Assembly (NCBI GenBank): GCA_964445525.1
Contig: CAYULA010000003.1
Location: 21,921 to 85,920, forward strand
Direction of reading: 5' to 3'
Length of the DNA stretch: 64,000 nucleotides
DNA from: an uncultured Thermoplasmatales archaeon
Lineage (GTDB): Archaea > Thermoplasmatota > Penumbrarchaeia > Penumbrarchaeales > Penumbrarchaeaceae
The notes beneath the pieces were generated by a model. The model was not told where the DNA came from, ran no database searches, and saw only the letters and a list, made by a program, of their open reading frames with translations. Both the position numbers and the translations under genes were made by a program. Below are positions 49,327-64,000 of the stretch, one piece after another (positions within the stretch are counted from its first letter, which is position 1; each line of letters starts with the position of its first letter).

Positions 49327-50427
49327 TCAGACCGGCTCCATTCCCCACCGGTGAAGTATGTTGCAGGACCCTTCCCTCGAGACCATGCAGGGACCTATCG
49401 GATGCTGAGGATCGCAGCCATTGGCGAAAAGTGGGCATTCCTTTGGATCGATGAGTCCCCTCAGAACCTCCCCGCAGCGGCAGCCGGCAGGTTCAGGTAT
49501 GTCCATGCTCCTTACCTCTTCAAGCTCGTCCTCGTAGATTCGGTATGCATCCTTTTCAGCGAATTTTGGAGATACTGCCAGTCCCGAACCCGGTATGACG
49601 GGGAACCCTCTCCACTGGATATCGGTTTCAACGAAGGTTTCCCTCATGGCTGAAAGGGCCTCCGGGTTGCCTTCAGGTCTCACAACTCTTCCATAGAGAT
49701 TGGTCAACTCCGCTCTATTTTCTTTCTTCTGTTTTGCTATCTCGAGGCATGCCATGATGAGGTCCAGCGGCTCGAACCCCGCAATCGCCTGCGGGAGCCC
49801 GTAATCGGCTGACAGGAACCTGTAGGGGTCTTCCCCTATAATCATGGATACGTGGCCGGGTTCGATCAGGCCGTCCAGTTTTATCTCGCCCGCGGACGCT
49901 ATTGCTTTCAGCGCAGGGGGGACGGTCCTGTGAAATGACATTATGGATAGATTTTCAGGCAGATCCCCCTGTAGAAGAAGGGCGGAAGTGGTTGGGGCAG
50001 TTGTCTCGAATCCGATTCCGAGGAAAACGAACTCCTTTTCCGGTTCTTTTTTCGCCATCCCGATCACATCCGTGGGAGAGTAGATGATCCTCACGTCACC
50101 TCCCCCTGACCTGATCTCGGAAAGGGTCCCCTCCCTTCCGGGAACCTTGACCATATCCCCGAAGGAGGCTACAACCTTGCCCCTCCTTGCAAGTTCAATG
50201 GCGGATTCTATCTCGTTCCCGGTTGTTACGCAGACCGGACATCCGGGACCCTGCCTGACGGTTACCCTTACTTCTCTGAGAAGAGGCTCGATCCCGAACC
50301 TGACCAGTGTGTCCTGATGGGTTCCGCAAACGTGCATTACGGTGATACTCTCTCCGATGGAACCTATCGCATCAAGGGCTTTCCTTGCCGTTTTTTTGTT
50401 CCTAAGCTTCAGGTCCATCCTCATCAT
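49327..50427 (-). CDS. hypD: [NiFe]-hydrogenase maturation protein HypD
   Basis: MHVCGTHQD, GPGCPVCVT, GFETTAP and PCMVSREGSC motifs. Confidence 0.92.
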   Translation of the reverse strand: MMRMDLKLRNKKTARKALDAIGSIGESITVMHVCGTHQDTLVRFGIEPLLREVRVTVRQGPGCPVCVTTGNEIESAIELARRGKVVASFGDMVKVPGREGTLSEIRSGGGDVRIIYSPTDVIGMAKKEPEKEFVFLGIGFETTAPTTSALLLQGDLPENLSIMSFHRTVPPALKAIASAGEIKLDGLIEPGHVSMIIGEDPYRFLSADYGLPQAIAGFEPLDLIMACLEIAKQKKENRAELTNLYGRVVRPEGNPEALSAMRETFVETDIQWRGFPVIPGSGLAVSPKFAEKDAYRIYEDELEEVRSMDIPEPAGCRCGEVLRGLIDPKECPLFANGCDPQHPIGPCMVSREGSCNILHRWGMEPV

Positions 50428-50767
50428 CCTCGATCAGGAGCTTAACATTGCTCACTGTAACCCCTTTTCCTTTGATAATATCCACGTCCTGTCCGCATTC
50501 GGGACAGGCGAAAACAGGCATCATGTAATGGTAAAGAGGGTTCTCCTTCACCTCGAGGTCCCCTTCATAATCGCATGAGGAGCATTTAACGAAAACCTCC
50601 TCGTCAGATATCTTCAAAACAGATCCTTTCAGAAGATCGTTTTCCGCGGTTACGGCTTCCCAGCAGAACCTCAGCTGCTCCTCTCCGAGGAAGGTCAGCC
50701 TCCCTATGGAAAGGTGCACCTCGTCCACTTTCTGGACACCTTCGTACTGCGAGGCTGCCTGGATCAC
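50402..50767 (-). CDS. hypA: hydrogenase nickel-incorporation protein HypA (N-terminus anomalous)
   Basis: Zn site CSSC...CPECG and the overall HypA pattern. The first in-frame start is GTG 50767. The conserved N-terminal sequence HELQIASNLVKAV is encoded in frame upstream (50803-50768) without any ATG/GTG/TTG. See finding. Confidence 0.8.
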   Translation of the reverse strand: MIQAASQYEGVQKVDEVHLSIGRLTFLGEEQLRFCWEAVTAENDLLKGSVLKISDEEVFVKCSSCDYEGDLEVKENPLYHYMMPVFACPECGQDVDIIKGKGVTVSNVKLLIEDDEDGPEA

Positions 50768-50818
50768 GGCCTTGACCAGATTGGAAGCTATCTGAAGCTC
50801 GTGCGAGGTCCTCCCCCC

Positions 50819-51052
50819 TCATACCTCGCTGGCCTGGAAAGCGTCAAGGGCCTCGTCCCAGAGACTCAAGGTTTCCTTCGCGTCTTCCTCGTCCATTATC
50901 TGGAGTGCGAATCCTGCGTGGACAACTACCCAGTCTCCAAGTTTGGGCCTGACATAGATTGTATTGGCTTCCCTGCGGGTGCCCCCGTAGTCAACGAGGG
51001 CCCTGTTCTCGTCGATTATCTCAACGACCTTTCCCGGAATGGCAAGGCACAT
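50819..51052 (-). CDS. hypC: hydrogenase assembly chaperone HypC
   Basis: MCLAIPGKVVEI N-terminus (Cys2). 77 aa. Confidence 0.9.
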   Translation of the reverse strand: MCLAIPGKVVEIIDENRALVDYGGTRREANTIYVRPKLGDWVVVHAGFALQIMDEEDAKETLSLWDEALDAFQASEV

Positions 51053-51080
51053 GCAATGGGGTCACCCGAAAGGTCCTTAA

Positions 51081-53426
51081 TCAGGTTTGCGGAGTATTGC
51101 CCGCTTTTTCGAGCTCCAGACCTGCCAACGCTGCCTGACCCACGGAGATGCCCCCGTCGCCGGGAGGAACTCTCGAATGCAAAACCGGAAAGGCCCCGTG
51201 CTCCCGACAGGACCTCACGAAATACCTCACTATGGGTAGGTCGTAGGCAACTCCTCCGGAGATCCCGACATAGGGCCTTTTGTTACTATCACCTTTATTG
51301 TCCACCAGTGATATTTCCACCATGTCGTCCAGAATCGATCCCACCATGCCCATAACAAGGTCCGGAGTATTTCTTTGATCAGGAATTATTCCGATGGAGG
51401 GATTGTCATTTCCGAACAACTCCTCCACAAGTATCTTCCATCGTCCCGTTACGTCCACCTGATTTCCCTTCAAGGGTACGGAGAATAGAGAGGTCTCGGG
51501 ATTTTTTGACCTGTCAAGTAACGATTCGAGTCTCATTGCCGGCTCACCATCATAGGTTCTCCATGTTATGCCGAGAACAAGGGATGATAGTGCGTCCAGG
51601 AGTCTCCCGAACGAGGTTGTCGATACTGCCCGGCCATGGGTCTTTGAAAGGAATGAGGCTGCCGCCTCATCATGGATGTCAAGATCGATTCCCGATTCCC
51701 TGGAGATCCAGTGGGCGATCCTCTCGGGATGATAGACGGAGCTGTCCCCTCCGGGAAGGCCGAAAGGCTCGAGGGATCCAAGCCTTTCGAAGAGGCCCCA
51801 TGATGATCCTATTATCTCCCCGCCCCACGGGAGTCCGTCCCTTCCGTGTCCCACCCCGTCAAGAACGAGGACCGGAAGGGAGCGGAGATCGGAGTCCACC
51901 ATAAGCGAGGCGGCGTGCGCCTCATGATGCTGATATCTGTACAACGGAACGTCGAACCTCTCCGCAAATTCTCTGGCAAGTGGTATGGTCTCGTATCTGG
52001 GATGGAGGTCCGCAGAAACAGCTTCGATCTTCTGCCCGCCGAAAAGGGTCATCAATCTTTCAGCGGATTGCGAGGCATAGTCCAGAACCTCGGGGTGCCT
52101 GCTGTTTCCGATGTAAGGGCTTGTGAATGCCCTGCCCTTCACCGAAACCGTCACGGTGACGTTCCTCTCGGCACCGAACGAGAGTATACCCCTTTCATGC
52201 GGAAGGTCCAGAGGATCAGGTATCAGTCCCCTCGCTTTTCTGATGGGAAAGGATCTGATGGAGAAAGGTCCGGGTAACGATCTGGCAGTATCTGGATCTA
52301 AGGGGTTGGGTACAAGAACGGAATCGTCGCATCTGGCCGATATCTCTCTGTCATGAACCAGGTATCCGTCGGCTTTCATCTTGAATGCGTTTTCGAGGTC
52401 CACCGCCATGGGTTCCCCGGGAGGATTGGCCGATGTCATGACGATGCTCTTAAGTCCGCTGCCATTATCCTTCAGAGCCTTGAATAGAAGATGATGTATG
52501 CCGGAATACGGGAGATAGATACCCACCGTACTCAGTCCCGGTGAGGCCCCTTCAAGGATTCGTGATTTTTCTTTGGCAAGATCATCCCTTTTCTTAACAA
52601 GCACGATCGGTCTTGCGGGGGAGAGGAGGGTTTTTTCAACGTAATCGGGGACCCCGGCAAGTTCTTTCGCTGATGCCAGGTCCCTTGCCATTAATGCAAA
52701 CGGCTTGTAAGGGCGGCTGTACCATTTTCGGAGGCGATCCATCCTGACGGGATCGCATACTATATGCATTCCTCCCCACCCCTTCACGATGACGATCCCT
52801 CCGGAGGAGATCATATCGGCGCACTTACGGAATGCCCGGTAGTCTTCATGGACAACATTTCCTTTACTATCCAGGAAGCGGTATCTGGGTCCGTTCTCCG
52901 GACAGGAGAGGGTCTGGGCGTGGAATCTCCTGAAGGTCTGGTCGGAATACTCATTCCTGCAGTCAGGACACATTGGAAAATGCTTCATTGAGGTCCTCTC
53001 CCGGTCATAGGGGAGGCCCTCTATCAGGGTGTATCTCGCTCCGCAGTCGGTGCAGTTTGTGAATGGATAGAGATACCTCCTGTTTTCGGGATCCGACATT
53101 TCCTTCAGACAGCTTTCGCATATGGCAGTGTCCGGCGGCAGGGAGGAATCCCTCTCCCCTTCCGTGGAGGCGATTATCTCAAATGAAGGTGGAATTTCCT
53201 TTTTCGGGTCAAGGACGATGATATCCCAGCTTTCGATCCTTGCCATGGGACCGAGAATGGATTCCAGTTTTTTCAGAAGTTTTTCCGGATCGATATCGCA
53301 TTCGATGGTTACATGTGAGCCGTCATTTCTGACAAAACCCCTTGCCCCTAAAATATCAGCGGCTCTCTTGACAGAGGGTCTGAATCCGACCCCTTGAACA
53401 ACACCCCTGGCCTCTATCCTGAACAT
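51081..53426 (-). CDS. hypF: carbamoyltransferase HypF
   Basis: Acylphosphatase domain (ARGVVQGVGFRPSV), two zinc-finger pairs (CESC...C-x2-C; CPDC), and YrdC-like and Kae1-like domains. 781 aa. Confidence 0.95.
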   Translation of the reverse strand: MFRIEARGVVQGVGFRPSVKRAADILGARGFVRNDGSHVTIECDIDPEKLLKKLESILGPMARIESWDIIVLDPKKEIPPSFEIIASTEGERDSSLPPDTAICESCLKEMSDPENRRYLYPFTNCTDCGARYTLIEGLPYDRERTSMKHFPMCPDCRNEYSDQTFRRFHAQTLSCPENGPRYRFLDSKGNVVHEDYRAFRKCADMISSGGIVIVKGWGGMHIVCDPVRMDRLRKWYSRPYKPFALMARDLASAKELAGVPDYVEKTLLSPARPIVLVKKRDDLAKEKSRILEGASPGLSTVGIYLPYSGIHHLLFKALKDNGSGLKSIVMTSANPPGEPMAVDLENAFKMKADGYLVHDREISARCDDSVLVPNPLDPDTARSLPGPFSIRSFPIRKARGLIPDPLDLPHERGILSFGAERNVTVTVSVKGRAFTSPYIGNSRHPEVLDYASQSAERLMTLFGGQKIEAVSADLHPRYETIPLAREFAERFDVPLYRYQHHEAHAASLMVDSDLRSLPVLVLDGVGHGRDGLPWGGEIIGSSWGLFERLGSLEPFGLPGGDSSVYHPERIAHWISRESGIDLDIHDEAAASFLSKTHGRAVSTTSFGRLLDALSSLVLGITWRTYDGEPAMRLESLLDRSKNPETSLFSVPLKGNQVDVTGRWKILVEELFGNDNPSIGIIPDQRNTPDLVMGMVGSILDDMVEISLVDNKGDSNKRPYVGISGGVAYDLPIVRYFVRSCREHGAFPVLHSRVPPGDGGISVGQAALAGLELEKAGNTPQT

Positions 53427-54098
53427 TCAATCTCCCTTTATCAATCCCAGGGCCTCGGCAAGCTCCTCTATGCCCCGGGAATGTTTTGCATCGGTTATTA
53501 CCACCCTGGAGTTCGGTTTCACGGTGGATGCGTCCTTCTTCAGGATATCGAGATCAACTTCCATGATGCCTGCAAGATCGGATTTGTTGATGACGATGAC
53601 ATCGGCTTCCCTGAAAATCACCGGGTGCTTCCTTATCATGTCATCACCTTCCGTGACGGAGATGACAACCGCCCTGATATCGGTTCCCAGGGGAAAATCC
53701 GCAGGACATACCAGATTTCCCACGTTCTCAACAAGAAGTATGTCGATATCGTCCAGCTTGAGGTCCTCAAGGGCATGCTCGGCCAGATGAGCGTCTATAT
53801 GGCACTCGTTACCCGTGTTGACGTTCACGGTCGGAACTCCAAGAGCCGAGATCCTCCTGTAATCGTCATCTCCAACCACATCGCCTGTGATCACTCCCGA
53901 TCTGATTTCTCTCTTTTTCAGAAGTAACACGAGCCTCTCGATGAGAAGAGTTTTGCCCGATCCGATGGATCCCATGAAATCCACGGATCTGATGTCCTTG
54001 GACCTCAGCAGATCGTGGTTTTCCTCCGCAAGCTTCCTGTTTGCCGCAAGCAGGTCCCTTTCCATGTCAACCGAGAGAACTTGATGCATGTGGAACAC
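53427..54098 (-). CDS. hypB: hydrogenase nickel-insertion GTPase HypB
   Basis: P-loop GSIGSGKT, ENVGNLVCPA and INKSDL motifs. The stop abuts the hypF start. Confidence 0.9.
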   Translation of the reverse strand: MFHMHQVLSVDMERDLLAANRKLAEENHDLLRSKDIRSVDFMGSIGSGKTLLIERLVLLLKKREIRSGVITGDVVGDDDYRRISALGVPTVNVNTGNECHIDAHLAEHALEDLKLDDIDILLVENVGNLVCPADFPLGTDIRAVVISVTEGDDMIRKHPVIFREADVIVINKSDLAGIMEVDLDILKKDASTVKPNSRVVITDAKHSRGIEELAEALGLIKGD

Positions 54099-54388
54099 CT
54101 CTGGCGGACTATCGATTCCTATACTAAAAACTATGTCCCGTATACTGATTCAAACAGGGATAATTTCTTACATGTTGGGAAAATAGATTGACATGGGGGA
54201 GATTTACATTCGGTGAATACCCGATTTCATAAGTACATATATTCGGTAACCTCCAGCCTCCTGTCGGAATATAATATATAATTGGATATACATTTCCGGT
54301 ACATCCGACATACCAGTATTGTACCTTAACGGGGAAGGTCCCGAGGGACCTGGTCAATGCTGGGTTGGATCAGTGGGAGGGCAAAGAG

Positions 54389-57133
54389 ATGCATAAGAGG
54401 ATAGGGCTTGTTGTTGTCGCCGTGATGTTAATAGGAGGATTACTTCCATTTCTTGCGGGAGCGGAACCAACGAGGACCCTTTCGGCGGAGATAGTCGATG
54501 TGATGCTGGATGGAGAACTCGGACCCGATGGTGAGTATGCCTCCGGAACGCATGAGGTCTCATATCTGGTGAACAACACTGGCACCGAATATTTCACGGA
54601 CCTTACGACAGTTTACATGAAGGTATTCTATCCCAACGACACTCTCTACATGTCGATGGAGGAGGACAGTATTATTGCGGTTGACAATGAAACCTCCACA
54701 ATGGGAGAGTTCGTATTCGGGGATATCATCCTTCCGGAAGGTGAGTTCACCATAGTCATCAATGCCACACTAAGAGGGGTCAACTCCAGTGCAGAAATCG
54801 ATGTAACGGTTGCGGATGTGGTGGATCTCTCCATTGACAGTGATTTCTTCGAACCGGAAGGAACCTATCCGCTGAGCGAGGAGATGATGCCCAGCTATTC
54901 CGTGGAATACGACGGAAACGTAATGGGATGGGCAGGCAACGTTACTGTTGACCTGGTAATCACCTACGTTGATTCCGAGCCAAACCAGGTTAGCTACGAC
55001 GAGGAAATGGAGATAATGATGTACAATTCCACTCCGGTTGATCCGGGTCATGAATTCTCCATGATGTTCGGTGCGGGATGGACTCCCGCGATCTCCGGCC
55101 AGTACAGGGCCGTATTCACTGTTGATGCCACCGACATTGCTGATGATTATTATCCGGAAAACGACACATTCACGGTCTTTTTCTTCATAGAAGAGGCCCC
55201 ATCCATAGAGGGCTGGGTCAAGACTTCCACCGGAACACCCGTTTCGGACGTAAACGTGAAGGCAATGATCGGTTCCATAGACACCAATATTATGACCGAT
55301 GCATCCGGTTATTATCAGTTCATGGATCTGGCTCCCGGAATATACTCACTGGAGTTCACCAAGCTCTGGTCCACATCGGAGCTGAACTCTTCCGTGGAGG
55401 TTTTCGATGGACAGACCACTGTGGTCAATGCCACCATAAACAAGATGGCAGTCGGTGGACTTGAAGGAAAGGTATTCCTTCCCGACGGTGTGACACCGGC
55501 GGTTGGAGCCGAGGTTTCGATAAACGTACCCGGTGAACCCCTGGCCACGGAGATCACCAATGAGGACGGTAATTATTCCTTTACAACGGTCAAGGCAGGT
55601 CAGATCAGCGTCTTTACAAGTTTGGAAGGTTACGAGAACGATGAGAGACCTTCGTTTCTGATAATAGAACAGATCTGGAATCCGCTGGACCTCACCCTCG
55701 GCGAGATACAGTTTACGGTTGACTTTTCACCTCCTGACGGGGAATTGTCGATATCTATCTCACCTACCATAACGCTTCAGTTCTCCAGGCCGATCAACAG
55801 GTCCACGGTAAACGAATCCACAATCTACATGGTTGATCTTACAACGAGCGAGACCCTTCCCGTTGCTTTTTCATTCATCGATGTGGAGAACAAGGTCCTC
55901 GTGGAACCCGAAAATCTGCTGGAATACAACAGGGATTATCGAATAACCGTCACCGATATGGTGGAGGATGTGAACGGAAACCCGTTCCCCGACATCCGGT
56001 TCGCAAGCTTCACCACCGAGGTGCAGATAGTGGAGGTCGAGCTCCAATCCTTCTATCCCGGAGACGATCAGAGTGAGGTCCCAATTGACATCAGCATAAC
56101 TGCCACTTTCCCCGAACCAATGGACGGATCGACAATAAATACCAATAACTTCCAGATTTTCATAAGCGGGGGCGGAGGATCTCCAATTCCGGGTTCGGTT
56201 GTATATTACTCCAACAATTATACCGCAAGGTTCACGCCCGCATCCAATCTTCAGTACAACGGAAGATACTCGGTATCACTGAACAACCTGGTAGAACCGC
56301 TGGACCCGAACCACATATTCCTGGGCGCTACATGGTCCTTCGAGACAATGCCGCTGATAACCACGGGAACAGTGATGGGATATGTCCTGGATGACAATGG
56401 AGAGCCTTTCCTCCCCACCGAAGTGACGATAAACATCCAGAAGGGAGACCAGAATCCGATCTCCCTGAATGTTGACCAGGCCGGAAAGTTCGAAAGAGCC
56501 GGTCTGGAAGCCGGTCTATGGACAATTACCATCCAGGTCCCTGATTACAAGAAGCACACCGATGAGTTCACCATTGTGGCCGGCGAGGATACCAATCTTC
56601 AGGATATCGAACTGGATGAAAAGGAGGAAGACGGAGGGATCATGGATAACATCGGAGCCATAGTTCTTGTCATCCTGGTGATTGTGATCGTTCTCATACT
56701 TCTCTATGTGTTCCTGGGAAGGCGCGAGAGGCCCGTGGAAGCGGTTGAGGAACCTGCAAGAGCCAGGGGAAGACCGGCTGCCTTCGGAGGAGCACGGGAG
56801 AGGGAATCTCTCAGGGAAAGGGAGCCGTATTATGACGAGATAGCAGAAGGCGAGTTCATGTGTCCCGTCTGCGGTAATGTTGTAGGACCGGAGGACCCCG
56901 ACTGTCCCAGCTGCGGAGCGGAGTTTGAAGAGGACCTCTTCGAGTGTCCGGAATGCGGAACCCTGATTCCCGGAGAAGCCATGGAGTGTCCCGACTGCGG
57001 TGCGAAGTTCGAGGAGGAAGAGGACGAGGAAGGAGAGGAATACGAGGAAGAGGAAGAGGAACCCGACATCACCGAGGATTACGAGGTCGATGAGCTGGAC
57101 GAAGAGGAGATTCCTTTTCGCGAGAGAGAGTAG
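54389..57133 (+). CDS. giant surface protein (CARDB-like, CarboxypepD_reg-like, SbsA/Big_5 Ig-like domains) with TM anchor and cytoplasmic double zinc ribbon + acidic tail
   Basis: ATG 54389 lies 7 nt after GGGAGGG. Signal MHKRIGLVVVAVMLIGGLLPFLAGA. IEGWVKTSTGTPVSDVNVKA...DASGYYQFMDLAPGIYSLEF is CarboxypepD_reg-like. FSPPDGELSISISPTITLQFSRPINRSTV... is Big_5-like. TM helix IGAIVLVILVIVIVLILLYVFLG. The tail carries CPVCG-x9-CPSCGAEFEE and CPECG-x9-CPDCGAKFEE. Confidence 0.8.
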   Translation: MHKRIGLVVVAVMLIGGLLPFLAGAEPTRTLSAEIVDVMLDGELGPDGEYASGTHEVSYLVNNTGTEYFTDLTTVYMKVFYPNDTLYMSMEEDSIIAVDNETSTMGEFVFGDIILPEGEFTIVINATLRGVNSSAEIDVTVADVVDLSIDSDFFEPEGTYPLSEEMMPSYSVEYDGNVMGWAGNVTVDLVITYVDSEPNQVSYDEEMEIMMYNSTPVDPGHEFSMMFGAGWTPAISGQYRAVFTVDATDIADDYYPENDTFTVFFFIEEAPSIEGWVKTSTGTPVSDVNVKAMIGSIDTNIMTDASGYYQFMDLAPGIYSLEFTKLWSTSELNSSVEVFDGQTTVVNATINKMAVGGLEGKVFLPDGVTPAVGAEVSINVPGEPLATEITNEDGNYSFTTVKAGQISVFTSLEGYENDERPSFLIIEQIWNPLDLTLGEIQFTVDFSPPDGELSISISPTITLQFSRPINRSTVNESTIYMVDLTTSETLPVAFSFIDVENKVLVEPENLLEYNRDYRITVTDMVEDVNGNPFPDIRFASFTTEVQIVEVELQSFYPGDDQSEVPIDISITATFPEPMDGSTINTNNFQIFISGGGGSPIPGSVVYYSNNYTARFTPASNLQYNGRYSVSLNNLVEPLDPNHIFLGATWSFETMPLITTGTVMGYVLDDNGEPFLPTEVTINIQKGDQNPISLNVDQAGKFERAGLEAGLWTITIQVPDYKKHTDEFTIVAGEDTNLQDIELDEKEEDGGIMDNIGAIVLVILVIVIVLILLYVFLGRRERPVEAVEEPARARGRPAAFGGARERESLREREPYYDEIAEGEFMCPVCGNVVGPEDPDCPSCGAEFEEDLFECPECGTLIPGEAMECPDCGAKFEEEEDEEGEEYEEEEEEPDITEDYEVDELDEEEIPFRERE

Positions 57134-57146
57134 AATCTGATTGAAC

Positions 57147-57179
57147 GGGAGGCCTCAGGGTCTCCCATTTTGTTTTTTA
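57147..57179 (+). terminator. stem-loop GGGAG-N10-CTCCC followed by a T-tract
   Basis: GGGAGgcctcagggtCTCCC followed by attttgtttttt, 14 nt after the stop at 57133. Confidence 0.4.
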
Positions 57180-57180
57180 T

Positions 57181-57244
57181 GATAAAATATATATATATCC
57201 TGAACCGTGGTTAATTAACGGCGGTTAATTAATGCTGGTTAATA
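57181..57244 (+). promoter_or_regulatory. TATA-like (AT)n box followed by three 14-bp-spaced GGTTAAT(TAA) repeats overlapping the ATPase start codon
   Basis: gataaaatatatatatatcc (57181-57200). GGTTAATTAA at 57209-57218 and 57223-57232, and GGTTAATA at 57237-57244. The ATG is at 57232. Confidence 0.4.
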
Positions 57245-58461
57245 GATTTGAGATCAATCGGATAAATGAGATGAAAGGTTGGCTCCTGATCTTCGGAAGG
57301 AGGAAGGTCGGAAAGACCTTTTTATTGAAAAACTTCATTGAATGGGACAGATTCTTCATGGTGAAGAGGGACGGGTCAGTAATCAATGAAAAAGAGAAAC
57401 CCGTGGTTTATGATGATGTTCAGGATCTTCTTTCTGACCTTAAATTCTACTTAAAAAACAATGAAACGGTGGTACTGGACGAATTCCAGAGGCTGCCGGA
57501 ATCGTTCTGGGACGAGATCTCCCTTATACATCCCGAAGGCAGATTGATCCTGTCAGGTTCCAGCCTCAGGATCGTTGACAGGGTCCTTTCCAATAATTCA
57601 CCCCTTCTTGGAATGGTGTATCCGGTGAAGATTCCTCTGATCAAACCCTCGGATATCCTGAAAGGTCTCTCCGATCGAATGGATCCCGTAAGGGCCATTA
57701 CAATGTCTCCCTTCATGCAGGACCCCTGGACAATACCTATGCTGGAAGAAAAAGAAGACATCCTGGATATAATCCCAATACTCCGGTATGTCGTCCCCGG
57801 TCTGTTAGGAGAGGTTTTCTCGGAAGAGGAGAGGGAACTTACCAGAACATATGAATCGATTATTTCCCTCCTCGGATCGGGTATGGAGGATTACAACAGG
57901 ATGGGAAAGGTCCTCTGCGATCGGGGGATTGTCTCCAATCCAAATTCCTCAAGCGTCATACCGTATCTCAAGAACCTGGTCAAGATGGGACTGGTTACCG
58001 AATACAGGAAGTGGAAAGAGAGGGGTTCGGTATACAGATTGACTTCCCGGGTAATGAAGACATATTATTATCTTGAATCGAGGTATGATCTGGAGAACAG
58101 GGATGTTCCGTCGGATGAGATGGAACCTACCTTGAACAAGCTCGTACAGTTTTCGGTTGAGGAATTCCTGGCGGATTTCTTTGGGGATCTATTGCAGGGA
58201 AGGGTTGAGGTCCTGAAGAAAAGGGATATGGAGCTGGATATCTTTGTAACGAGAAGGAACAAACCATATCTGGTTGGAGAGGTCAAATGGGGAAAGGCGG
58301 ATAATGGGGACGTGGAGAAATTCAAGGAGAAGGTTGAGGATTTCTCCTGCCGGAAGGTGTTTGTTGCAAGAGAGAAGCTTGAAGATGAGGAGATCGAGAT
58401 ACTGGGTCCTGAAGATATTGTAGAGGCGGCAATGGCGGGAACATTGATTAAAAAGAAATGA
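57232..58461 (+). CDS. archaeal ATPase (Arch_ATPase-type P-loop) with DUF234-like C-terminal domain
   Basis: Walker A FGRRKVGKTFLL and Walker B VVLDEFQRL. The C-terminal ELDIFVTRRNKPYLVGEVKWGK matches the DUF234 nuclease-like region. Confidence 0.85.
   Translation: MLVNRFEINRINEMKGWLLIFGRRKVGKTFLLKNFIEWDRFFMVKRDGSVINEKEKPVVYDDVQDLLSDLKFYLKNNETVVLDEFQRLPESFWDEISLIHPEGRLILSGSSLRIVDRVLSNNSPLLGMVYPVKIPLIKPSDILKGLSDRMDPVRAITMSPFMQDPWTIPMLEEKEDILDIIPILRYVVPGLLGEVFSEEERELTRTYESIISLLGSGMEDYNRMGKVLCDRGIVSNPNSSSVIPYLKNLVKMGLVTEYRKWKERGSVYRLTSRVMKTYYYLESRYDLENRDVPSDEMEPTLNKLVQFSVEEFLADFFGDLLQGRVEVLKKRDMELDIFVTRRNKPYLVGEVKWGKADNGDVEKFKEKVEDFSCRKVFVAREKLEDEEIEILGPEDIVEAAMAGTLIKKK
58341..58431 (+). repeat. 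copy A of a ~91-bp duplicated ATPase 3'-end segment (copy B at 59260-59350)
   Basis: By-eye alignment at offset 919 gives 4 mismatches over about 91 nt. Confidence 0.8.
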
Positions 58462-58595
58462 ATTTTCTCATTTACGGGGGAATTTCGAGGTTTATCAGGA
58501 CAAATTCATTGTTCTTCCCTCATTCAGGTCCATATGGGATTATATCAAAGAATTGAAATGGATAATTGAATGGCCGTCAGTGGTTAGTGGAATCA

Positions 58596-58898
58596 CTAAT
58601 CATCGAAAACAAGGGTTTTCTTGCCTTTCTGAAGATAATCAAGCCCCAGTATAACTTCCTCATCGCTTTCATCATCCAGTGGAGCATCGTCCATGATAAC
58701 CTCGTCAAGTTCTATGAAATCATCATCGTCCTCCGCTCTGATTCCCACTTCGACTATTGGACTCAATCTCCTGTCACCATCTGAAGCGATCCAGGCTCTT
58801 TCGTATATTATTTCCTCGATCTCAAGATTCTTTACAATTGATGTTCCGATTATGGAGAGATCTGCCCCCGTATCAATAAAGGCCAGGATATTATCCAC
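58596..58898 (-). CDS. retropepsin-like (clan AA) aspartic protease, single-domain
   Basis: AFIDTGADLSIIG (D-T-G active-site loop) and C-terminal ILGLDYL, which are the two hallmarks of homodimeric retropepsin-type proteases. An acidic insertion EDDDDFIELDEVIMDDAPLDDESDEE lies between them. Confidence 0.7.
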   Translation of the reverse strand: MDNILAFIDTGADLSIIGTSIVKNLEIEEIIYERAWIASDGDRRLSPIVEVGIRAEDDDDFIELDEVIMDDAPLDDESDEEVILGLDYLQKGKKTLVFDD

Positions 58899-58950
58899 AG
58901 TTTTATTATTGTAACAAACTGAAACTCGGGTATATTTTCTTCACAATTTA

Positions 58951-59142
58951 TCAATTCGCAAGGACCTTGTCAATTTTTCTTCTAAGATCGTGGTCCTGAA
59001 TGTCACCTTCGATGGTGATATGGTCGCCTTCGATTATGATCCTGTAATCAGGTCCCAGGAGATTTCTGATCTCCTTTACCTTTTTCGAGATATCCTTGTT
59101 GGATACCTTCGCACTGACCCCTCTTAATCTCAATGAAGGCAT
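58951..59142 (-). CDS. hypothetical small protein (63 aa) upstream of the retropepsin-like gene
   Basis: TATA-like TTTAATTATA about 40 nt upstream and AGGTGATG just upstream of the ATG. Basic N-terminus. No family recognised. Confidence 0.5.
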   Translation of the reverse strand: MPSLRLRGVSAKVSNKDISKKVKEIRNLLGPDYRIIIEGDHITIEGDIQDHDLRRKIDKVLAN

Positions 59143-59248
59143 TTCATCACCTGATGTTCATCCATTTTGGGTATAATTAAAGTTTCCTGAATGATATTTG
59201 GCATGAATGGTCCCCGGATACCTACCTAGGCCATTTTTAATTCCAGTA

Positions 59249-59368
59249 ATGGTGGAAGTTTTCTCCTGCAGGAAGGTGTTTGTTACAAGAGAGAAGCTTG
59301 AAGATGATGAGATCGAGGTACTGGGTCCTGAAGATATTGTAGAGGCGGCAAGAACAGGGATTGTTTAA
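59249..59368 (+). pseudogene. 3'-terminal fragment of a paralogous Arch_ATPase/DUF234 gene
   Basis: Encodes (M)VEVFSCRKVFVTREKLEDDEIEVLGPEDIVEAARTGIV*, versus the end of 57232..58461 ...DFSCRKVFVAREKLEDEEIEILGPEDIVEAAMAGTLIKKK*. Only the last ~35 codons are present. Confidence 0.6.
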
Positions 59369-59377
59369 AACAAAGAA

Positions 59378-59499
59378 AACAAAAGATTTTTATGGCCAGG
59401 ACCTGATATTCGAGATATCGGAGGTCAAATATGAGAGGAGTCAGAGTCCTTGTATTTTCATCGATATTCTTACTTCTACTTTCCTCCATCCTGGTCCTC
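59378..59499 (+). repeat. copy 1 of a 122-bp direct repeat (5' leader + RBS + signal-peptide codons)
   Basis: Aligns with 61404-61525 with 4 mismatches by eye. Contains GGAGGT (59420-59425) and ATG 59431. Confidence 0.85.
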
Positions 59500-59807
59500 C
59501 CACCGAATTCGTTGAGATCACGATTCCGAAAGAAGAGGATCCCGATGGAAAACCCGATGGAAACGAAACGGCAAATGTTGAAGAGGAAGAATTCCCTGTC
59601 TGGATAATAGCAATATTAATTGGAGTTGTATTGATACTTATCATTACGGGTTTGGTATTTTTCCTGATGAGCAAGAAAAAGATAGAGAAGAATGATAATT
59701 CAGCAGAAAATGAATATGGTAATCCCAAAGATCCATTCGAATCTCGGGAATATGCATCAGTTGTTGAGAATAGTAATATATCCATGAATTATGAACCAGA
59801 AGATTGA
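59431..59807 (+). pseudogene. gutted, frame-disrupted surface-protein gene (signal peptide + C-terminal stalk/TM anchor only)
   Basis: From ATG 59431 the product is MRGVRVLVFSSIFLLLLSSILVL, then nonsense, with a stop at 59605-59607. A different frame (track ORF 59361..59807) encodes EDPDGKPDGNETANVEEEEFPVWIIAILIGVVLILIITGLVFFLMSKKK..., a typical stalk-TM-tail of the window's type-I surface proteins. Confidence 0.5.
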
Positions 59808-59814
59808 TCTGGTA

Positions 59815-61323
59815 TTAATCACCCAATAACACCTTCCAATAACCTCCTCTGGCTGGACCCACTCTCTTGATAATTCCATTCTTCTTGAGCAATTGAATAT
59901 TATAATCTACTGACTTTTTCCCCAATCCGGTCTTATTTTGTATCTCTTTTTTACTAATTCCTGGTTCTTTCATCATTAGCTCAAGGATTTTTTTCTGTTT
60001 TTCAGTAATTAGAGTTTCTTTGTAGAAGCTCCCCTTTTCTACCCCCTTTTCTACCCCCTTTTCTACCCCCTTTTCTACCCCCTTTTCTACCCCACTTATT
60101 CTGAATTTTTCATTTGCTTGATTCAAAGGAAATGTAATTTTAAAGAAATCAAACCCTCCCATTATTACCGGTTCGATATGATAACGAGAATTCCAACCTT
60201 CCATCATTTTATGGAAACCACTACCAATATTCTCTGCCAGTTTAACGTACCTGAATATTTTGGTTATAGTTGGATTTCTGGGTAATGAAATATCCTCTTT
60301 TATAATATCTTCAATATTTTTTGGCAGTGGTCCTGGATTGAAGAACTCTATTCGATCCGAGAATACCCTCACCCTGGAATTCATCTTGCTGAAATAATCC
60401 GAATGGATCAGAAGATTTACAAGAGCTTCCCTGATTGCCTGTACTTGTGGGGGATCATCATCTCTGATTCCACTAACCATTGAAAATGGTATCTCTATCT
60501 TCTTCAATAAACGATCATAAATATCAAAAAAAGTAGAAAATAGATTTTGATCACTTGATAGTCTGTATGTATAACGGGTTGGTCCATCTTCATAAGTAGT
60601 CCCAGGGATTTCAAGATACTCTATTCTGTAATTCGCCAATGTATTAGCGATAACATCGTTTCTACCAAAAACAAGTAATCCAGCATAAGTTACCTTGTCA
60701 TTTCTAAGAACTCCTATCTTCTGGAGGAATTCCTCGTTATTCAGGGTAACAAATCTATGACCTGGGTTGATGCTTAAAAACAAGTTTCTATACCTTTCGA
60801 TCGTGTCCTTATCAAGATCTTCAATGGTGTGATCAACACATTCAGAATCTTTATTCGTTATTGATGATTCTCTGAAAAAAGAATCAACCTCTTCGGGAGT
60901 TGCTCTTTGATCTCCACTTGCAGTTCTAATGAATGTATTCTTCAATGAATTGAAATAGACTGGACGATCTCTGGTGGAGGATTTTGAGATATAAAACGCA
61001 AGAATTGATCTTCCTTCCATTTCATACTTTTTTGAGATAACCTTGATTATCTTATTGAACTTGGATCCATTTCGCAATGTAGTGGTGAAATTCTGCTCGA
61101 TCCTTTCGGGATCCGAGACACCAATGACCTTGTATGACTTACCCTTTTTACTAATTCCGAATATCAACCAACCTCCCGAAGTATTGGAGAATGCTGATAC
61201 TGTTTCCCATGAGCTCTTGGGGATTTCATTTTTTGCTTCCTTTACTTCGAAATCTTCCCATTCAATATCCTCAAGTCTTCGTATCAATTCTTCCCTTTTC
61301 ATCGATATTGCTCCAAGTTTCAT
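59815..61323 (-). CDS. AlbA_2 (Schlafen-type) + HATPase_c_4 + winged-HTH protein (often annotated RecG-like / transcriptional regulator)
   Basis: The N-terminus EDIEWEDFEVKEAKNEIPKSSWETVSAFSNTSGGWLIFGI is the AlbA_2 pattern. REALVNLLIHSDYF is the HATPase_c_4 pattern. The C-terminus is KKILELMMKEPGISKKEIQNKTGLGKKSVDYNIQLLKKNGIIKRVG (wHTH). AT-rich. Confidence 0.8.
   Translation of the reverse strand: MKLGAISMKREELIRRLEDIEWEDFEVKEAKNEIPKSSWETVSAFSNTSGGWLIFGISKKGKSYKVIGVSDPERIEQNFTTTLRNGSKFNKIIKVISKKYEMEGRSILAFYISKSSTRDRPVYFNSLKNTFIRTASGDQRATPEEVDSFFRESSITNKDSECVDHTIEDLDKDTIERYRNLFLSINPGHRFVTLNNEEFLQKIGVLRNDKVTYAGLLVFGRNDVIANTLANYRIEYLEIPGTTYEDGPTRYTYRLSSDQNLFSTFFDIYDRLLKKIEIPFSMVSGIRDDDPPQVQAIREALVNLLIHSDYFSKMNSRVRVFSDRIEFFNPGPLPKNIEDIIKEDISLPRNPTITKIFRYVKLAENIGSGFHKMMEGWNSRYHIEPVIMGGFDFFKITFPLNQANEKFRISGVEKGVEKGVEKGVEKGVEKGSFYKETLITEKQKKILELMMKEPGISKKEIQNKTGLGKKSVDYNIQLLKKNGIIKRVGPARGGYWKVLLGD
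60031..60093. repeat. 12-bp tandem repeat x5.25 (ccccttttctac) encoding (VEKG)5 on the minus strand
   Basis: Read directly from the sequence. It lies in the linker between the HATPase_c_4-like region and the wHTH of 59815..61323. Confidence 0.9.
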
Positions 61324-61403
61324 CGATACTGTTCTTCACAGTCCCTATCATTACCGGTAATTATCTAATTTACCATGATGTCAAAACCGCTAATAAGTAT
61401 CGG

Positions 61404-61525
61404 AACAAAAGATTTTTATGGCCAGGACCTGATATTCGAGATACCGGAGGTCAAATATGAGAGGAATCAGAGTCCTTGTTTTTTCATCGATATTATTACT
61501 TCTACTTTCCTCCATCCTGGTCCTC
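61404..61525 (+). repeat. copy 2 of the 122-bp direct repeat (5' leader + RBS + signal-peptide codons)
   Basis: See copy 1. GGAGGT at 61446-61451, ATG at 61457. Confidence 0.85.
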
Positions 61526-64000
61526 TCCTCCGGTGAAAAAGAACAAGATTTTGATATTTCTAAGGAAATGGAGGAGGAATCCATTCCTTCAGTTGTTGAG
61601 GTCCTCTCCGATTGTATTCAAAGTGAGGCCCCTTCCAGGAATTCGGAGGGAGCTCCGTGGCCAATGTTCAAACAGAATCCACAACATACAGGATTAAATT
61701 TCAATGCAATTAATAATAATCCTGGAAGGATAAAATGGAATAAAAAAATTTCATGGGGAAGTTATGATAGCTCGTGTGTTATTGATAGTTCAGGAAATAT
61801 ATTAATAGGAATGAGAAACAATCATTATACCACAAAACTTCATTCATTTTTTCCTAATGGAACAATAAATTGGATATTTGAAACCTATAAAACCAATGAA
61901 TATGGAAATAAAATCGATGGTGGTGTAATAAATCCTGCCTGTATAGATGATTTTGGCAACATTTATTTCGATTCTTTTGATGGTGAATTCTATTCATTGT
62001 ACGATAACGGTACTGTCCGTGCAAATTTTTCTTCAAATGATAGGTACTCGGGACCAACAATATATGAAAATAAAATATATACAGGGAATCAGAACGGTTT
62101 TTTATATATTTTTAATACTGATTTAGACTTGTTATTATGCAAATATATTAGTATGCCTATTTATTCCTCTTTGCCTGCTATTGGGAATAATGGTCAAATC
62201 TATATCGGCGGTTCATCTGATAAACTATATTCAATATATCCAAATGGAACAGAAAATTGGAATATAAGTATTTCTCCCGATTATTCTTCCTCTCCTTGCA
62301 TTGACAATGATGGAATAATTTATATTGGTTCTTCGTTACCATTTCTATATGCTGTTTATCCAAATGGGACTATAAAGTGGCGTTTCAATACAGGAAATTC
62401 TGTAAGCTCATCTCCGTCGATTGGAATTGATGGAGAAATAATTTTTGGATGCAGAGACGGATATGTATATTCTATATTTCCAAATGGCACACTAAAGTGG
62501 AAATTCTCTACCAAACAACCTATTTGGGAGTCATCTCCAGCAATTGATGGGAATGGCATAATTTATATCGGTTCCGATGATAATTATCTATATTCAATCT
62601 ATCCAAATGGTTCCTTAAAATGGCAGTTGAAATTGTCAGAAAAAATTGGAGATTCTCCAGCTATAGATAACAAAGGTAATGTTTATATAACCTCTTTTGA
62701 TGGATATTTATATTGCATTGGGGCTTTAAAACCAACTATTCCAATGAATAAAACATTGTTAAATGGCAATAATTATATTAATCTTTCATGGGACCTCCCC
62801 ATTGATGACGGAGGAGCCGAGATCCTCAATTTCAATGTATACAGGAATACCTCCGGGAACGATCCTGAATTATTTACAACGGTTCCTGCAAATGAATTGT
62901 TCTTCAACGATACCGATGTGATCAATGGAGTGGAATACTCCTACTGGATATCTGCCGTGAACCGGGAAGGAGAAAGCGAATTGGCTGGCCCTTTCAATGC
63001 AACTCCGAGAGGTCCTCCCTCCGCCCCCCGAAATGTTACCGTTTCAAGCGGACCTGCATATCTCAATATCTCTTGGGAAGGACCTCTTACCGATGGCGGA
63101 TATTCGATTGAAGGATTCAAGATATACAGAAAAGAAGCAGGTATATTCCTGCTTCATGGAGAGACAACCGATCTGTTCTACATCGATGATGTTGCCAATC
63201 CGGGAGTGAATTACAGTTACTATATCACTGCCTTCAACGAATACGGTGAGGGAGCTCCCACCAGTACTTTCTGGGGAGAATCTTTAGGTCCCCCGCCACC
63301 TCCACTACCCGTAACCATCGGACGATATGACAGTGAGGTCAGCCTCAACTGGTCCATGTCATTATTCTATTTACGGGAATATGACATCACTCATGTCAGG
63401 ATCTACCGGGACAGCTCTCTTCTTCAGGAGGTCCCTTTCGATGATGAATACTACAATGACACAGGTCTCGTCAACGGCGAGTTGTATTCGTATCGGGTTT
63501 CTTCCGTCAACTTGATCGGTGAAGGGGACCTCTCCGATGAGATCGAGGCGGTTCCCGGCTGGTCGCCTTCAACCCCCAGGAATATCTCAACCTGGGCCAA
63601 TACCACCATGGTTAAGATTTACTGGGATCCTCCCGAGTTCGAGAGAGGATTTCCCGTTGATATGTACATCGTCTACCGAAAAACTGACGATGGCAGGTGG
63701 ATCAATCTCATGAACGTTCCCTCCTCGAATGACCCTCACTGGAATGACACCTACGTGGAAAAGGGAGACACCTACGAATACAAGGTTGTCGCTTTGAATC
63801 AGAGAGGGATGTCTCCGGAAGCGGGTCCTGTTTCTGCAACGATTCCAATGGGGGATCCTCCAAATGCGCCCGAGGACCTCGAAGCCGTATTCGAAAATGA
63901 AGAGGTCCTCCTCACCTGGTCCTATGATGATTCGAATCCAAAAGTCGATTCGTATACGATAGTGAGGACCCTCGAAAACGGATCCGATATGATGGAATAC
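61457..64000 (+). CDS. giant surface protein: PQQ/BamB-like beta-propeller repeats followed by an array of fibronectin type III domains; 3' end outside the window
   Basis: Not in the ORF track because it is open at the window end. My hand translation from ATG 61457 gives 848 codons with no stop. Signal MRGIRVLVFSSILLLLLSSILVL. Repeated propeller blades (LYSIYPNGTENWN...SSSPCIDNDGIIYIGS; LYAVYPNGTIKWRF...SSPSIGIDGEIIFG; VYSIFPNGTLKWKF; LYSIYPNGSLKWQL...SPAIDNKGNVYI). At least five FN3 units follow (e.g. PSAPRNVTVSSGPAYLNISWEGPLTDGGYSIEGFKIYRK...YSYYITAFNEYGEG). Confidence 0.8.
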   Translation, partial: MRGIRVLVFSSILLLLLSSILVLSSGEKEQDFDISKEMEEESIPSVVEVLSDCIQSEAPSRNSEGAPWPMFKQNPQHTGLNFNAINNNPGRIKWNKKISWGSYDSSCVIDSSGNILIGMRNNHYTTKLHSFFPNGTINWIFETYKTNEYGNKIDGGVINPACIDDFGNIYFDSFDGEFYSLYDNGTVRANFSSNDRYSGPTIYENKIYTGNQNGFLYIFNTDLDLLLCKYISMPIYSSLPAIGNNGQIYIGGSSDKLYSIYPNGTENWNISISPDYSSSPCIDNDGIIYIGSSLPFLYAVYPNGTIKWRFNTGNSVSSSPSIGIDGEIIFGCRDGYVYSIFPNGTLKWKFSTKQPIWESSPAIDGNGIIYIGSDDNYLYSIYPNGSLKWQLKLSEKIGDSPAIDNKGNVYITSFDGYLYCIGALKPTIPMNKTLLNGNNYINLSWDLPIDDGGAEILNFNVYRNTSGNDPELFTTVPANELFFNDTDVINGVEYSYWISAVNREGESELAGPFNATPRGPPSAPRNVTVSSGPAYLNISWEGPLTDGGYSIEGFKIYRKEAGIFLLHGETTDLFYIDDVANPGVNYSYYITAFNEYGEGAPTSTFWGESLGPPPPPLPVTIGRYDSEVSLNWSMSLFYLREYDITHVRIYRDSSLLQEVPFDDEYYNDTGLVNGELYSYRVSSVNLIGEGDLSDEIEAVPGWSPSTPRNISTWANTTMVKIYWDPPEFERGFPVDMYIVYRKTDDGRWINLMNVPSSNDPHWNDTYVEKGDTYEYKVVALNQRGMSPEAGPVSATIPMGDPPNAPEDLEAVFENEEVLLTWSYDDSNPKVDSYTIVRTLENGSDMMEY

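Follow-up and report, generated by a model that had tools for sequence, protein, structure and literature searches.

Why does an archaeal chromosome carry the beginning of one surface-protein gene twice, once ahead of an intact reading frame and once ahead of a broken one? The question is raised by a stretch of 64,000 nt from an uncultured Thermoplasmatales archaeon (hereafter the window; positions 21,921 to 85,920 of contig CAYULA010000003.1, assembly GCA_964445525.1), in which a 122-bp direct repeat with signal-peptide codons (59378-59499 and 61404-61525) brackets an oppositely oriented gene. An earlier reading made from the letters alone (the sequence-only reading) had offered two answers: the repeat might be a recombination substrate, giving cassette exchange or expression-site-like variation of the exposed domain, or a one-off insertion might have duplicated it. 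We favour a third answer, to which we assign a probability of about 0.65. The repeat would be the start module of a surface-protein gene, carried once by the working gene and once by the remains of an upstream family member that has been lost, both lying inside a replacement flexible genomic island.

The repeated unit is the start of a surface-protein gene

The two copies of the module and the gene behind the second copy are as follows.

59378..59499, plus strand: module copy 1 (B), with a TATA-like TTTTTATG at 59388-59395, GGAGGT at 59420-59425, ATG at 59431 and 23 signal-peptide codons
61404..61525, plus strand: module copy 2 (B′), with the putative promoter, the ribosome-binding site and the signal peptide of the intact gene
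61457..64000, plus strand: intact surface-protein gene, cut by the window end; open for 847 codons, about 970 aa with the remainder taken from P0002

Pairwise alignment and a whole-window repeat search both bore out the repeat as it had first been described: 122 nt without gaps, 97% identity with four mismatches, and two copies only in the window. A 40-nt core of the module, sought with up to three mismatches, was present at two places in the window and no more, and 100 shuffles gave no match at all. Each copy contains, in order, AAAAGATTTTTATGG, GGAGGT, a 5-nt spacer, an ATG (59431 and 61457, respectively) and 23 codons, which read MRG(V/I)RVLVFSSI(F/L)LLLLSSILVL in the two copies. These details agree with the sequence-only reading, as does the frame of copy 2, which stays open to the window end for 847 codons by our count. 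The signal-peptide assignment, like the transmembrane (TM) assignments below, was made by inspection. We concluded that the 122-bp unit is the full 5′ expression module of a type-I surface-protein gene.

The sole relative that shares the module, and in diverged form, is a distant ortholog in L003 (57% amino acid identity; related sequences are designated L002 to L007). Its homology to the window begins at 61405, at the left edge of the module, and reaches ∼70% identity inside it. As the position of the TATA-like element is conserved in L003, this conservation together with the sequence suggests that the TTTTTATG element of the module is a promoter. The edges of the module match functional edges, the left one coinciding with the promoter-like element (in L003 too) and the right one with the end of the signal peptide. 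At two of the four sites that differ between the copies, L003 as an outgroup sides with copy 2, which fits copy 1 being an unconstrained copy.

In L003, an ISL3-family transposase gene (211-1446) lies directly upstream of the diverged module, and a 1414-aa NosD/beta-helix gene lies downstream of the surface gene. We also considered the module as an RNA element and rejected this candidate; there was no Rfam match at E ≤ 1 in 58300-61800, and the folding z-scores were −1.5 and −0.4.

Copy 1 is joined out of frame to the relic of a second gene

Three features define what follows copy 1.

59431..59607, plus strand: signal-peptide frame of copy 1 (open reading frame (ORF) list); 58 aa, made of 23 signal-peptide and 35 out-of-frame residues, then a stop
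59493..59499, plus strand: junction microhomology GGTCCTC, from a comparison of the junction sequences of the window, B′, L002, L005, L007 and L004
59493..59807, plus strand: relic 3′ end of a lost family member, S0, with an acidic stalk, a TM helix and a cytoplasmic tail

The stop of the signal-peptide frame at 59607 is where the sequence-only reading had placed it. The stalk, TM helix and tail of the relic lie in another ORF of 148 aa (59361..59807), whose frame runs two bases downstream of the signal-peptide frame (equivalently, one base behind) and encodes GPPTEFVEITIPKEEDPDGKPDGNETANVEEEEFPVW before the TM helix and the tail. Over 112 nt, segment 59493-59604 shares 93.75% identity with L002 2792-2903, the 3′ stalk region of a full-length gene; the relic is also 100% identical to L004 across 32 nt, and its protein aligns with the C-termini of P0002, P0003 and P0122. 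From these matches to the 3′ regions of L002 and L004, the anchor truly is the C-terminal part of another protein of this family. The earlier claim that copy 1 heads a gene deprived of its ectodomain and its reading frame, with a C-terminal surface anchor behind it, is thus upheld. Apart from the 148-aa ORF of the window itself (P0123), a search with the relic protein brought up a 136-aa homolog (P0124, from L007) and one normal C-terminus.

It had been stated that the homology between the copies stops exactly at ...CTGGTCCTC. The stop is not a clean one: the last 7 nt, GGTCCTC, are shared by the module and the stalk, being read as CTG GTC CTC at the end of the signal peptide and as GGT CCT CCC (G P P) at the start of the stalk. 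The BLAST alignment of the relic to the L002 stalk begins at 59493. With a slash at the junction, the short form is ...CCTGGTCCTC/CCACCGAATTC in the window and ...GAAGGTCCTC/CCACCGAATTC in the full-length genes; the longer form is ...ATCCTGGTCCTC/CCACCGAATTC in the window, ...GGGGAAGGTCCTC/CCACCGAATTC in the full-length genes and ...ATCCTGGTCCTC/TCCTCCGGT in copy 2. The frame breaks at copy 1 because the two readings of the heptamer sit two bases out of register. Comparison of these junctions suggests in vivo formation of the one at copy 1, through an illegitimate joining mediated by microhomology.

When the window is compared with L007, the dN/dS of the relic is 1.11 (8 synonymous and 34 non-synonymous differences over 104 codons, one comparison), and that of six neighbouring genes or gene parts is 0.05-0.26. 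The relic is not kept by purifying selection and drifts neutrally. Both the frame, broken relative to the intact homologs, and the dN/dS of 1.11 (a small sample) are those of a pseudogene or gene relic. A programmed frameshift linking the signal peptide to the stalk was considered and discarded; the relic is not under purifying selection, and the relic of L007 has no signal peptide.

Could the arrangement be a chimera of co-existing strain haplotypes, joined by the assembler via the repeat? The contig is metagenome-assembled, several close haplotypes exist, and related contigs do break at this locus: L005 starts right after a displaced fragment of an ATPase gene (A′, see below), and in L002 only 1.3 kb precedes the called (truncated) gene, so that the contig begins within ∼200 nt of what appears to be the true start of that gene. 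However, the signal-peptide/stalk junction shares just 7 nt, far under assembler k-mers, so that it should be present in the reads themselves. The four mismatches between the copies and the unique flanks on all four sides favour two real copies, and the same 148-aa ORF is recorded from a 117-kb NCBI contig (P0123). We consider an assembly artefact scarcely credible.

Related strains hold different genes between the ATPase gene and the surface gene

The comparison of strains is anchored by the following features.

57232..58461, plus strand: AAA ATPase gene, 409 aa (Pfam AAA_14, E 4.6e-9)
58322-58437 and 59241-59358, plus strand: repeat A and A′, the 3′ end of the ATPase gene and its displaced copy (last ∼35 codons)
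59815..61323, minus strand: SLFN_AlbA_2 + HATPase_c_4 + wHTH (HTH_24) gene, 502 aa (Pfam; weak PADLOC matches)

Positions 1-9851 of L007 are collinear with 49506-59358 of the window, and the collinearity ends exactly after A′. The ATPase gene (ortholog at 7765-8955 in L007) is the last gene collinear between the strains ahead of the variable segment. Over most of 49506-59358 the identity is 98-99%; it falls from 95% to 81% across the ATPase gene toward the variable segment, and from 99% to 81% when 57.0-59.4 kb is taken as a whole. The ATPase gene has a dN/dS of 0.12 and a pS of 0.34 against L007, and the adjacent 922-aa gene a pS of 0.05.

Past the end of collinearity, L007 carries a longer ATPase-downstream duplicate, 81 nt from the final fn3 domain, next the stalk with TM helix and tail, and a remnant of the AlbA_2 gene. 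This relic block is 82% identical over 764 nt to 59493-60255 of the window and has no module in front. It is followed by an MJECL33-family gene and genes of 267 and 108 aa, none of which is in the window, and then by a surface gene with a different leader. L005 is 99% identical to L007 where the two overlap but is without an 830-bp relic block, and its deletion junction shows the microhomology CCAA; its interval has no relic, holds the MJECL33, 267-aa and 108-aa genes, and has AbiEi/AbiEii downstream. None of the four related haplotypes recovered carries the module, and the exact loss of 59500-61525 by recombination between the repeats, predicted in the sequence-only reading, was not seen among them. 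As judged from these alignments, the relic is older than the strains, with a 5′ truncation that differs by strain, and it is absent from one of them. That the locus might be polymorphic in the population, as the sequence-only reading had supposed, is borne out by the L007 and L005 haplotypes.

On the right, L002, L005 and L006 have POR genes after the surface gene; the window's own right flank lies beyond its end. Separately, an AbiEi/AbiEii toxin-antitoxin pair was observed between the surface gene and POR in L005 (5780-7270) and in L006, not in L002 (3070-3250). The right side of the locus is also variable, with defence-type genes. The HypF gene (51600-53100, minus strand), where the identity to L007 dips to 85-94%, may be another recombination tract.

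The L007 haplotype bears most directly on the second proposal of the sequence-only reading, a one-off insertion with duplication. In this explanation, a 1.9-kb AlbA_2 element would have inserted in the 5′ end of the surface gene, duplicating or bringing along the 122-bp target, or a Campbell-type event would have had the same outcome. The direct repeats do bracket a compositionally different block with an opposite-strand gene, and the domains earlier named for that gene were recovered by Pfam. Also, the neighbouring A and A′ pair has the same topology, namely a duplicated gene end around minus-strand genes. In L007, however, the corresponding block (82%, 764 nt) has no flanking modules, and its left side runs 81 nt further, into the last fn3 domain of the same gene. 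Since the L007 relic continues into fn3 coding, the left end in the window falls within a gene, as an internal breakpoint, and is not the terminus of an element. Pfam found no integrase or transposase in the block, the junction on the left lies at a microhomology of 7 nt and interrupts a reading frame, and the unit 59500-61403 with the same ends was found nowhere else in the collections searched. Neither the constant ends nor the integrase of an integrated element was therefore seen, and we regard this explanation as extremely improbable.

The intact gene is assembled from blocks of different ancestry

The intact gene downstream of copy 2 could be divided into three segments after its leader.

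61651..61750, plus strand: conserved segment encoding APWPMFKQNPQHTGLN; left homology limit for related alleles with other leaders
61750..62800, plus strand: AT-rich propeller block, GC 0.27-0.37 (GC profile)
62800..64000, plus strand: fn3 block, GC 0.45-0.54, typical of the window

The protein consists, in order, of signal peptide, linker, PQQ-like beta-propeller, fn3 domains, acidic stalk, TM helix and tail. In Pfam, PQQ_2 scored 32.5 bits (cut-off 27.6) and fn3 94.9 bits (cut-off 25), the latter matching four stretches of the gene as far as the window shows it; a match to Beta-prop_ACSF4 (E 4.6e-34, 118.7 bits) stayed under the curated cut-off of 133. With two of these matches over cut-off and one under, the protein belongs to the surface family of PQQ-like beta-propellers with fn3 domains, and 1240 database relatives were found at E ≤ 1e-10. 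The missing C-terminus is provided by P0002, a database protein from a 117-kb NCBI contig that is 100% identical from aa 430 on and ends with ...GPPTEFVEITIPKEEDP..., an acidic stretch, FPVW, the TM helix and the tail.

When L002, L004, L005 and L006 were aligned to the window, the homology began at 61646-61651 in every case. L005 shows no relation to the window ahead of 61651; its identity is 95-99% over 61800-62500 (propeller) and 71-94% in fn3. L004 is 45-67% identical in the propeller (43-67% with L002 counted in) and 87-100% identical in the fn3 region. L002, L004 and L005 each have a different leader and signal peptide. P0014 carries a beta-helix head on the same fn3 scaffold. The intact surface gene is therefore a mosaic, its leader, propeller and fn3 blocks each having a different closest relative. 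The blocks are exchanged among strains and family members, and the module itself is one exchanged block. P0008, which is 21-45% identical overall, reaches 87-92% across two fn3 domains (aa 441-600 of the window protein), an observation that suggests transfer or conversion of an fn3 block between divergent genes.

The base composition follows the same architecture. GC is ∼0.33-0.40 between the module copies against ∼0.50 for the window, in agreement with the AT-rich insert noticed earlier. The repeats do not bound this insert, however: the AT-rich block extends from ∼58.4 to ∼62.8 kb and ends inside the intact gene, where GC rises sharply from ∼0.33 to ∼0.50 (∼62750-62900) at the propeller-to-fn3 boundary. 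The gene calls for P0002 (541 aa) and P0003 (575 aa) begin at or just upstream of this step, so that the protein databases are without the N-terminal half. These late starts are probably due to a low score of the AT-rich 5′ half in gene calling.

The mosaic could also be read more broadly, with the surface proteins built from exchangeable blocks (leader/signal, a head made of propellers or a beta-helix, fn3 scaffold, anchor) and with crossovers falling at short conserved linkers. The APWPMFKQNPQHTGLN segment, the start of the fn3 block and the PPTEFVEIT stalk may serve as such linkers, and relics like 59378-59807 may be retained as donors of leaders or anchors. If this is true, the locus would represent population-level, recombination-based variation of an archaeal surface, with the module duplication as one product of exchange. 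We think this broader reading rather doubtful.

Two further observations concern surface genes. ORF 25702-29262 contains an AT-rich stretch at 26000-29000 (GC 0.37-0.40); it encodes 1186 aa with a 264-nt periodic repeat and is a candidate for another surface-protein gene in which one block differs in composition. In the JGI contig L004 (3926-4833), the surface gene breaks after ...GAGATCACG in the stalk and enters a GC-rich region with glycosyltransferase-like sequences on the opposite strand, which is either another stalk breakpoint or a chimeric contig.

Further copies of the module and recombinases

The sequence-only reading had suggested looking for more copies of the module and comparing strains. 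The second check yielded the alternative haplotypes described above; the first yielded no further copy, in the window or in public collections. There are only two copies in 64 kb, although this stretch has at least seven large surface-protein ORFs. The DNA collections were scanned with exact 20-21-mers, and a copy with a mismatch inside the probe would escape. A 21-mer gave a single match in the GTDB representative genomes (the source genome is not among them), in a Bacteroidetes MAG (metagenome-assembled genome). We read it as a chance match, because about one is expected at this collection size and the locus is otherwise dissimilar to the window. A 20-mer gave 12 matches in JGI metagenomes, every one the start of an unrelated gene (MRGMLTLTII...), and the module and stalk patterns had no match in IMG/VR. 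The N-terminal 65 residues of the intact protein matched none of 5.8 billion proteins, a result weakened by the failure of gene callers to call AT-rich 5′ halves.

Among the proteins encoded in 54.4-64 kb, a Pfam scan found no recombinase, integrase or invertase, but only the AAA ATPase, the Asp-protease-like protein, the AlbA_2/wHTH protein and the surface proteins.

These searches, together with the mosaic structure, bear on the idea that the module is a dedicated recombination substrate for expression-site-like switching, with the relic as a silent or spent cassette. The edges of the module do coincide with functional edges, and the exposed domains of the family are indeed exchanged between strains and between members, to the extent that a beta-helix head sits on the same fn3 scaffold in P0014. 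That part of the first proposal, the exchange of exposed-domain cassettes between strains, stands. The part that makes the module the substrate or expression site is not supported: the window has two copies only, the collections named above have no other, no recombinase is encoded nearby, and no array of promoterless cassettes was seen. Alleles that share the propeller (95-99%) have unrelated leaders and become homologous only from 61651, so that the exchange uses conserved segments other than the module. We therefore judge a switching role very unlikely.

A history of the locus and the points that weigh against it

We propose the following history for the two copies. Copy 2 would drive the intact gene, and copy 1 would be the leftover 5′ end of a second, upstream family member, S0, which probably was once full length at its present position. 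The illegitimate joining of two GGTCCTC heptamers would have fused codon 23 of the S0 signal peptide to the S0 stalk, two bases off register. S0 would now yield a peptide of at most 58 aa, leaving its stalk, TM helix and tail untranslated behind the signal peptide, and the relic would drift neutrally and be erased differently in each strain. Strains of one species hold different gene sets between the ATPase gene and the surface gene, and homologous recombination would reshuffle the leader, propeller and fn3 blocks of the latter. The repeat would thus be a passive by-product of island turnover. In a variant of this history, the 3′ end of S0 would have come in an imported block, whose illegitimate end landed on a resident signal peptide. 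The 97% identity of the copies probably reflects recent copying or gene conversion, and pressure from viruses or predators on exposed structures is the likely selective driver.

Several points weigh against this history. The module copies are 97% identical, yet the relic alleles of two strains are only 82% identical; copy 1 is therefore not simply the old 5′ end, in place since the strains split, and an extra step is needed. Copy 1 thus acquired its present form not long ago, whether through gene conversion from copy 2, a local or recent duplication, or import. Where the window has the module, L007 has a diverged ATPase-downstream duplicate (i1′), and local alignments of the module to the ATPase-downstream segments i1 and i1′ gave z-scores of −0.7 to 5.3, depending on the pair, with 1-5 for i1′ against the module. 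With a similarity this marginal between i1′ and the module, the ancestral arrangement is not reconstructable. Additional copies of the module may exist in the rest of the source genome, outside the collections scanned, and the dN/dS of the relic comes from 104 codons only.

The same 97% identity would also fit a single import through homology-facilitated illegitimate recombination. In this scenario the recipient had A′, the module and a surface gene, and a donor block brought the S0 stalk, TM helix and tail, the AlbA_2 gene, copy 2, the linker and the AT-rich propeller. The right end of the block would have been anchored by homology in the conserved propeller/fn3 part, and the left end joined illegitimately at GGTCCTC to the recipient's own signal peptide. 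The gutted gene would then never have been full length here, consisting of a recipient 5′ end and a donor 3′ end, and the module copies would be a recipient and a donor allele; 97% fits the allelic divergence between strains with a core identity of 98-99%. The contiguous AT-rich block (∼59.6 to 62.8 kb) with its sharp GC step inside the gene, the 7-nt microhomology at the left junction and the different closest relatives of the propeller and fn3 blocks are all consistent with an import. The relic stalk, moreover, is nearer to the L002 allele than to the stalk of the intact window gene, with 6 differences in 36 from P0003 (the L002 product) and 9 in 36 from P0002 by manual count.

What stands against the import is that L007, at this very place in the chromosome, also has the relic and an AlbA_2 remnant, joined differently on the left. 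The L007 lineage would then have needed an import or truncation of its own, and the number of events equals that of the history with two tandem family members. In addition, the donor-type arrangement, a full-length S0 beside AlbA_2, was not found in the search with the relic protein. On balance we hold a single import to be possible but unlikely, and retain the two-gene history inside a flexible island as the preferred reading.

Comparison with known systems

With this reading, the locus has the properties of a replacement flexible genomic island. It occupies a fixed position between core genes, as seen on the left flank in L007 and on the right flank in the relatives only; its gene content is strain-specific, the window, L007 and L005 differing between the ATPase gene and the surface gene; it encodes an exposed envelope structure, with signal peptide, beta-propeller, fn3 domains, stalk and TM anchor; and the divergence at its boundary is raised and mostly synonymous (ATPase gene, pS 0.34 and dN/dS 0.12). 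Replacement flexible genomic islands are known to encode exposed cell structures (Lopez-Perez, Martin-Cuadrado & Rodriguez-Valera 2014, PMC4033161), the cell-wall island of Haloquadratum walsbyi being one example (PMC4535781), and a raised, mostly synonymous divergence at the island boundary has been described for them (PMC4033161; compare PMC4535781). The window locus resembles these islands in lying at the same position in strains with 98-99% core identity, in its strain-specific content and surface proteins, and in its diversity by homologous recombination with mostly synonymous substitutions up at the boundary. Unlike the published islands, it is small (a variable spacer of ∼3 kb and one modular gene), resolves the exchange to blocks below the gene level (leader, propeller, fn3), and holds a datable relic with a defined microhomology junction; its right flank lies outside the window.

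A comparison with antigenic variation is also instructive. The vsa, vsp and vlp lipoprotein genes of Mycoplasma have a highly conserved 5′ region with the signal peptide and switch by site-specific inversion or recombination. Like these, the window has a near-identical promoter, ribosome-binding site and signal module on more than one gene, with one copy on a non-expressed remnant. Unlike them, it has two copies only, no recombinase, no inverted sites and no cassette array, and its breakpoints fall outside the module. Systems of the vsa/vsp/vlp, pilE/pilS or vlsE type would have more than two family members or cassettes sharing the module, whereas two were found in the window and none in the public collections; a dedicated recombinase or dedicated sites at the module were likewise not found (Pfam, 54.4-64 kb). 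The related haplotypes carry other leaders, not the window module on other cassettes.

With regard to mechanism, homology-facilitated illegitimate recombination and microhomology-mediated deletion are general processes, the former reportedly described by de Vries and Wackernagel in 2002. The junctions with 4-7 nt of microhomology (GGTCCTC in the window, CCAA in L005) beside real homology resemble their products. The mechanism proposed for the window is deduced from the junctions alone, with donor and parental state not recovered. Regarding the protein, the content of PQQ_2 and fn3 is like that of products from Thermoplasmata and other MAGs annotated as 'outer membrane protein assembly factor BamB' or 'PQQ-binding-like beta-propeller repeat protein'. 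The BamB name is an annotation transfer; the window protein combines a signal peptide with fn3 spacers and a TM anchor at the C-terminus, an architecture for display on the cell surface. Scans against NCBIfam and Rfam yielded no domain-specific marker, and an archaeal (Thermoplasmata-like) origin is suggested by how distant homologs are named, by the ATPase_2 and MJECL33 families and by the architecture.

We concluded that the locus clearly exemplifies a pattern already known and reveals neither a new switching device nor a new mechanism. Its value lies in the turnover of an archaeal surface locus resolved to the base pair among strains that are 98-99% identical, where the spacer genes are replaced whole, the surface gene is rebuilt from leader, head and scaffold blocks of different ancestry, and a superseded gene is erased stepwise via microhomology deletions. 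It supports the view that recombination within a species diversifies exposed structures. It also carries a practical warning: gene callers truncate mosaic genes at the composition step, and assemblies break at the locus.

Genes and repeats upstream of and between the modules

Two small minus-strand features lie between A and A′.

58596..58898, minus strand: Asp-protease-like gene, 100 aa, with weak Pfam aspartyl-protease matches under the curated cut-off
58951..59142, minus strand: 63-aa ORF (ORF list)

Both are conserved in L007, with dN/dS values of 0.05 and 0.26, respectively. The A and A′ repeats, a pair that the sequence-only reading had missed, are 93% identical over a gap-free core of 101 nt (58332-58432 and 59251-59351). 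They enclose a 0.8-kb block of minus-strand genes in an arrangement that is shared with L007 and that resembles the 122-bp repeat pair in topology. A′ lies 19 nt upstream of module copy 1, and the matching duplicate in L007 runs on to 236 bp in total.

In the AlbA_2 gene that separates the modules, HATPase_c_4 and wHTH are linked by (VEKG)5, the product of a perfect 12-nt tandem repeat (60031-60093). L007 retains no more of this protein than its C-terminal 122 aa, with three VEKG units; the copy number of the repeat thus varies by strain.

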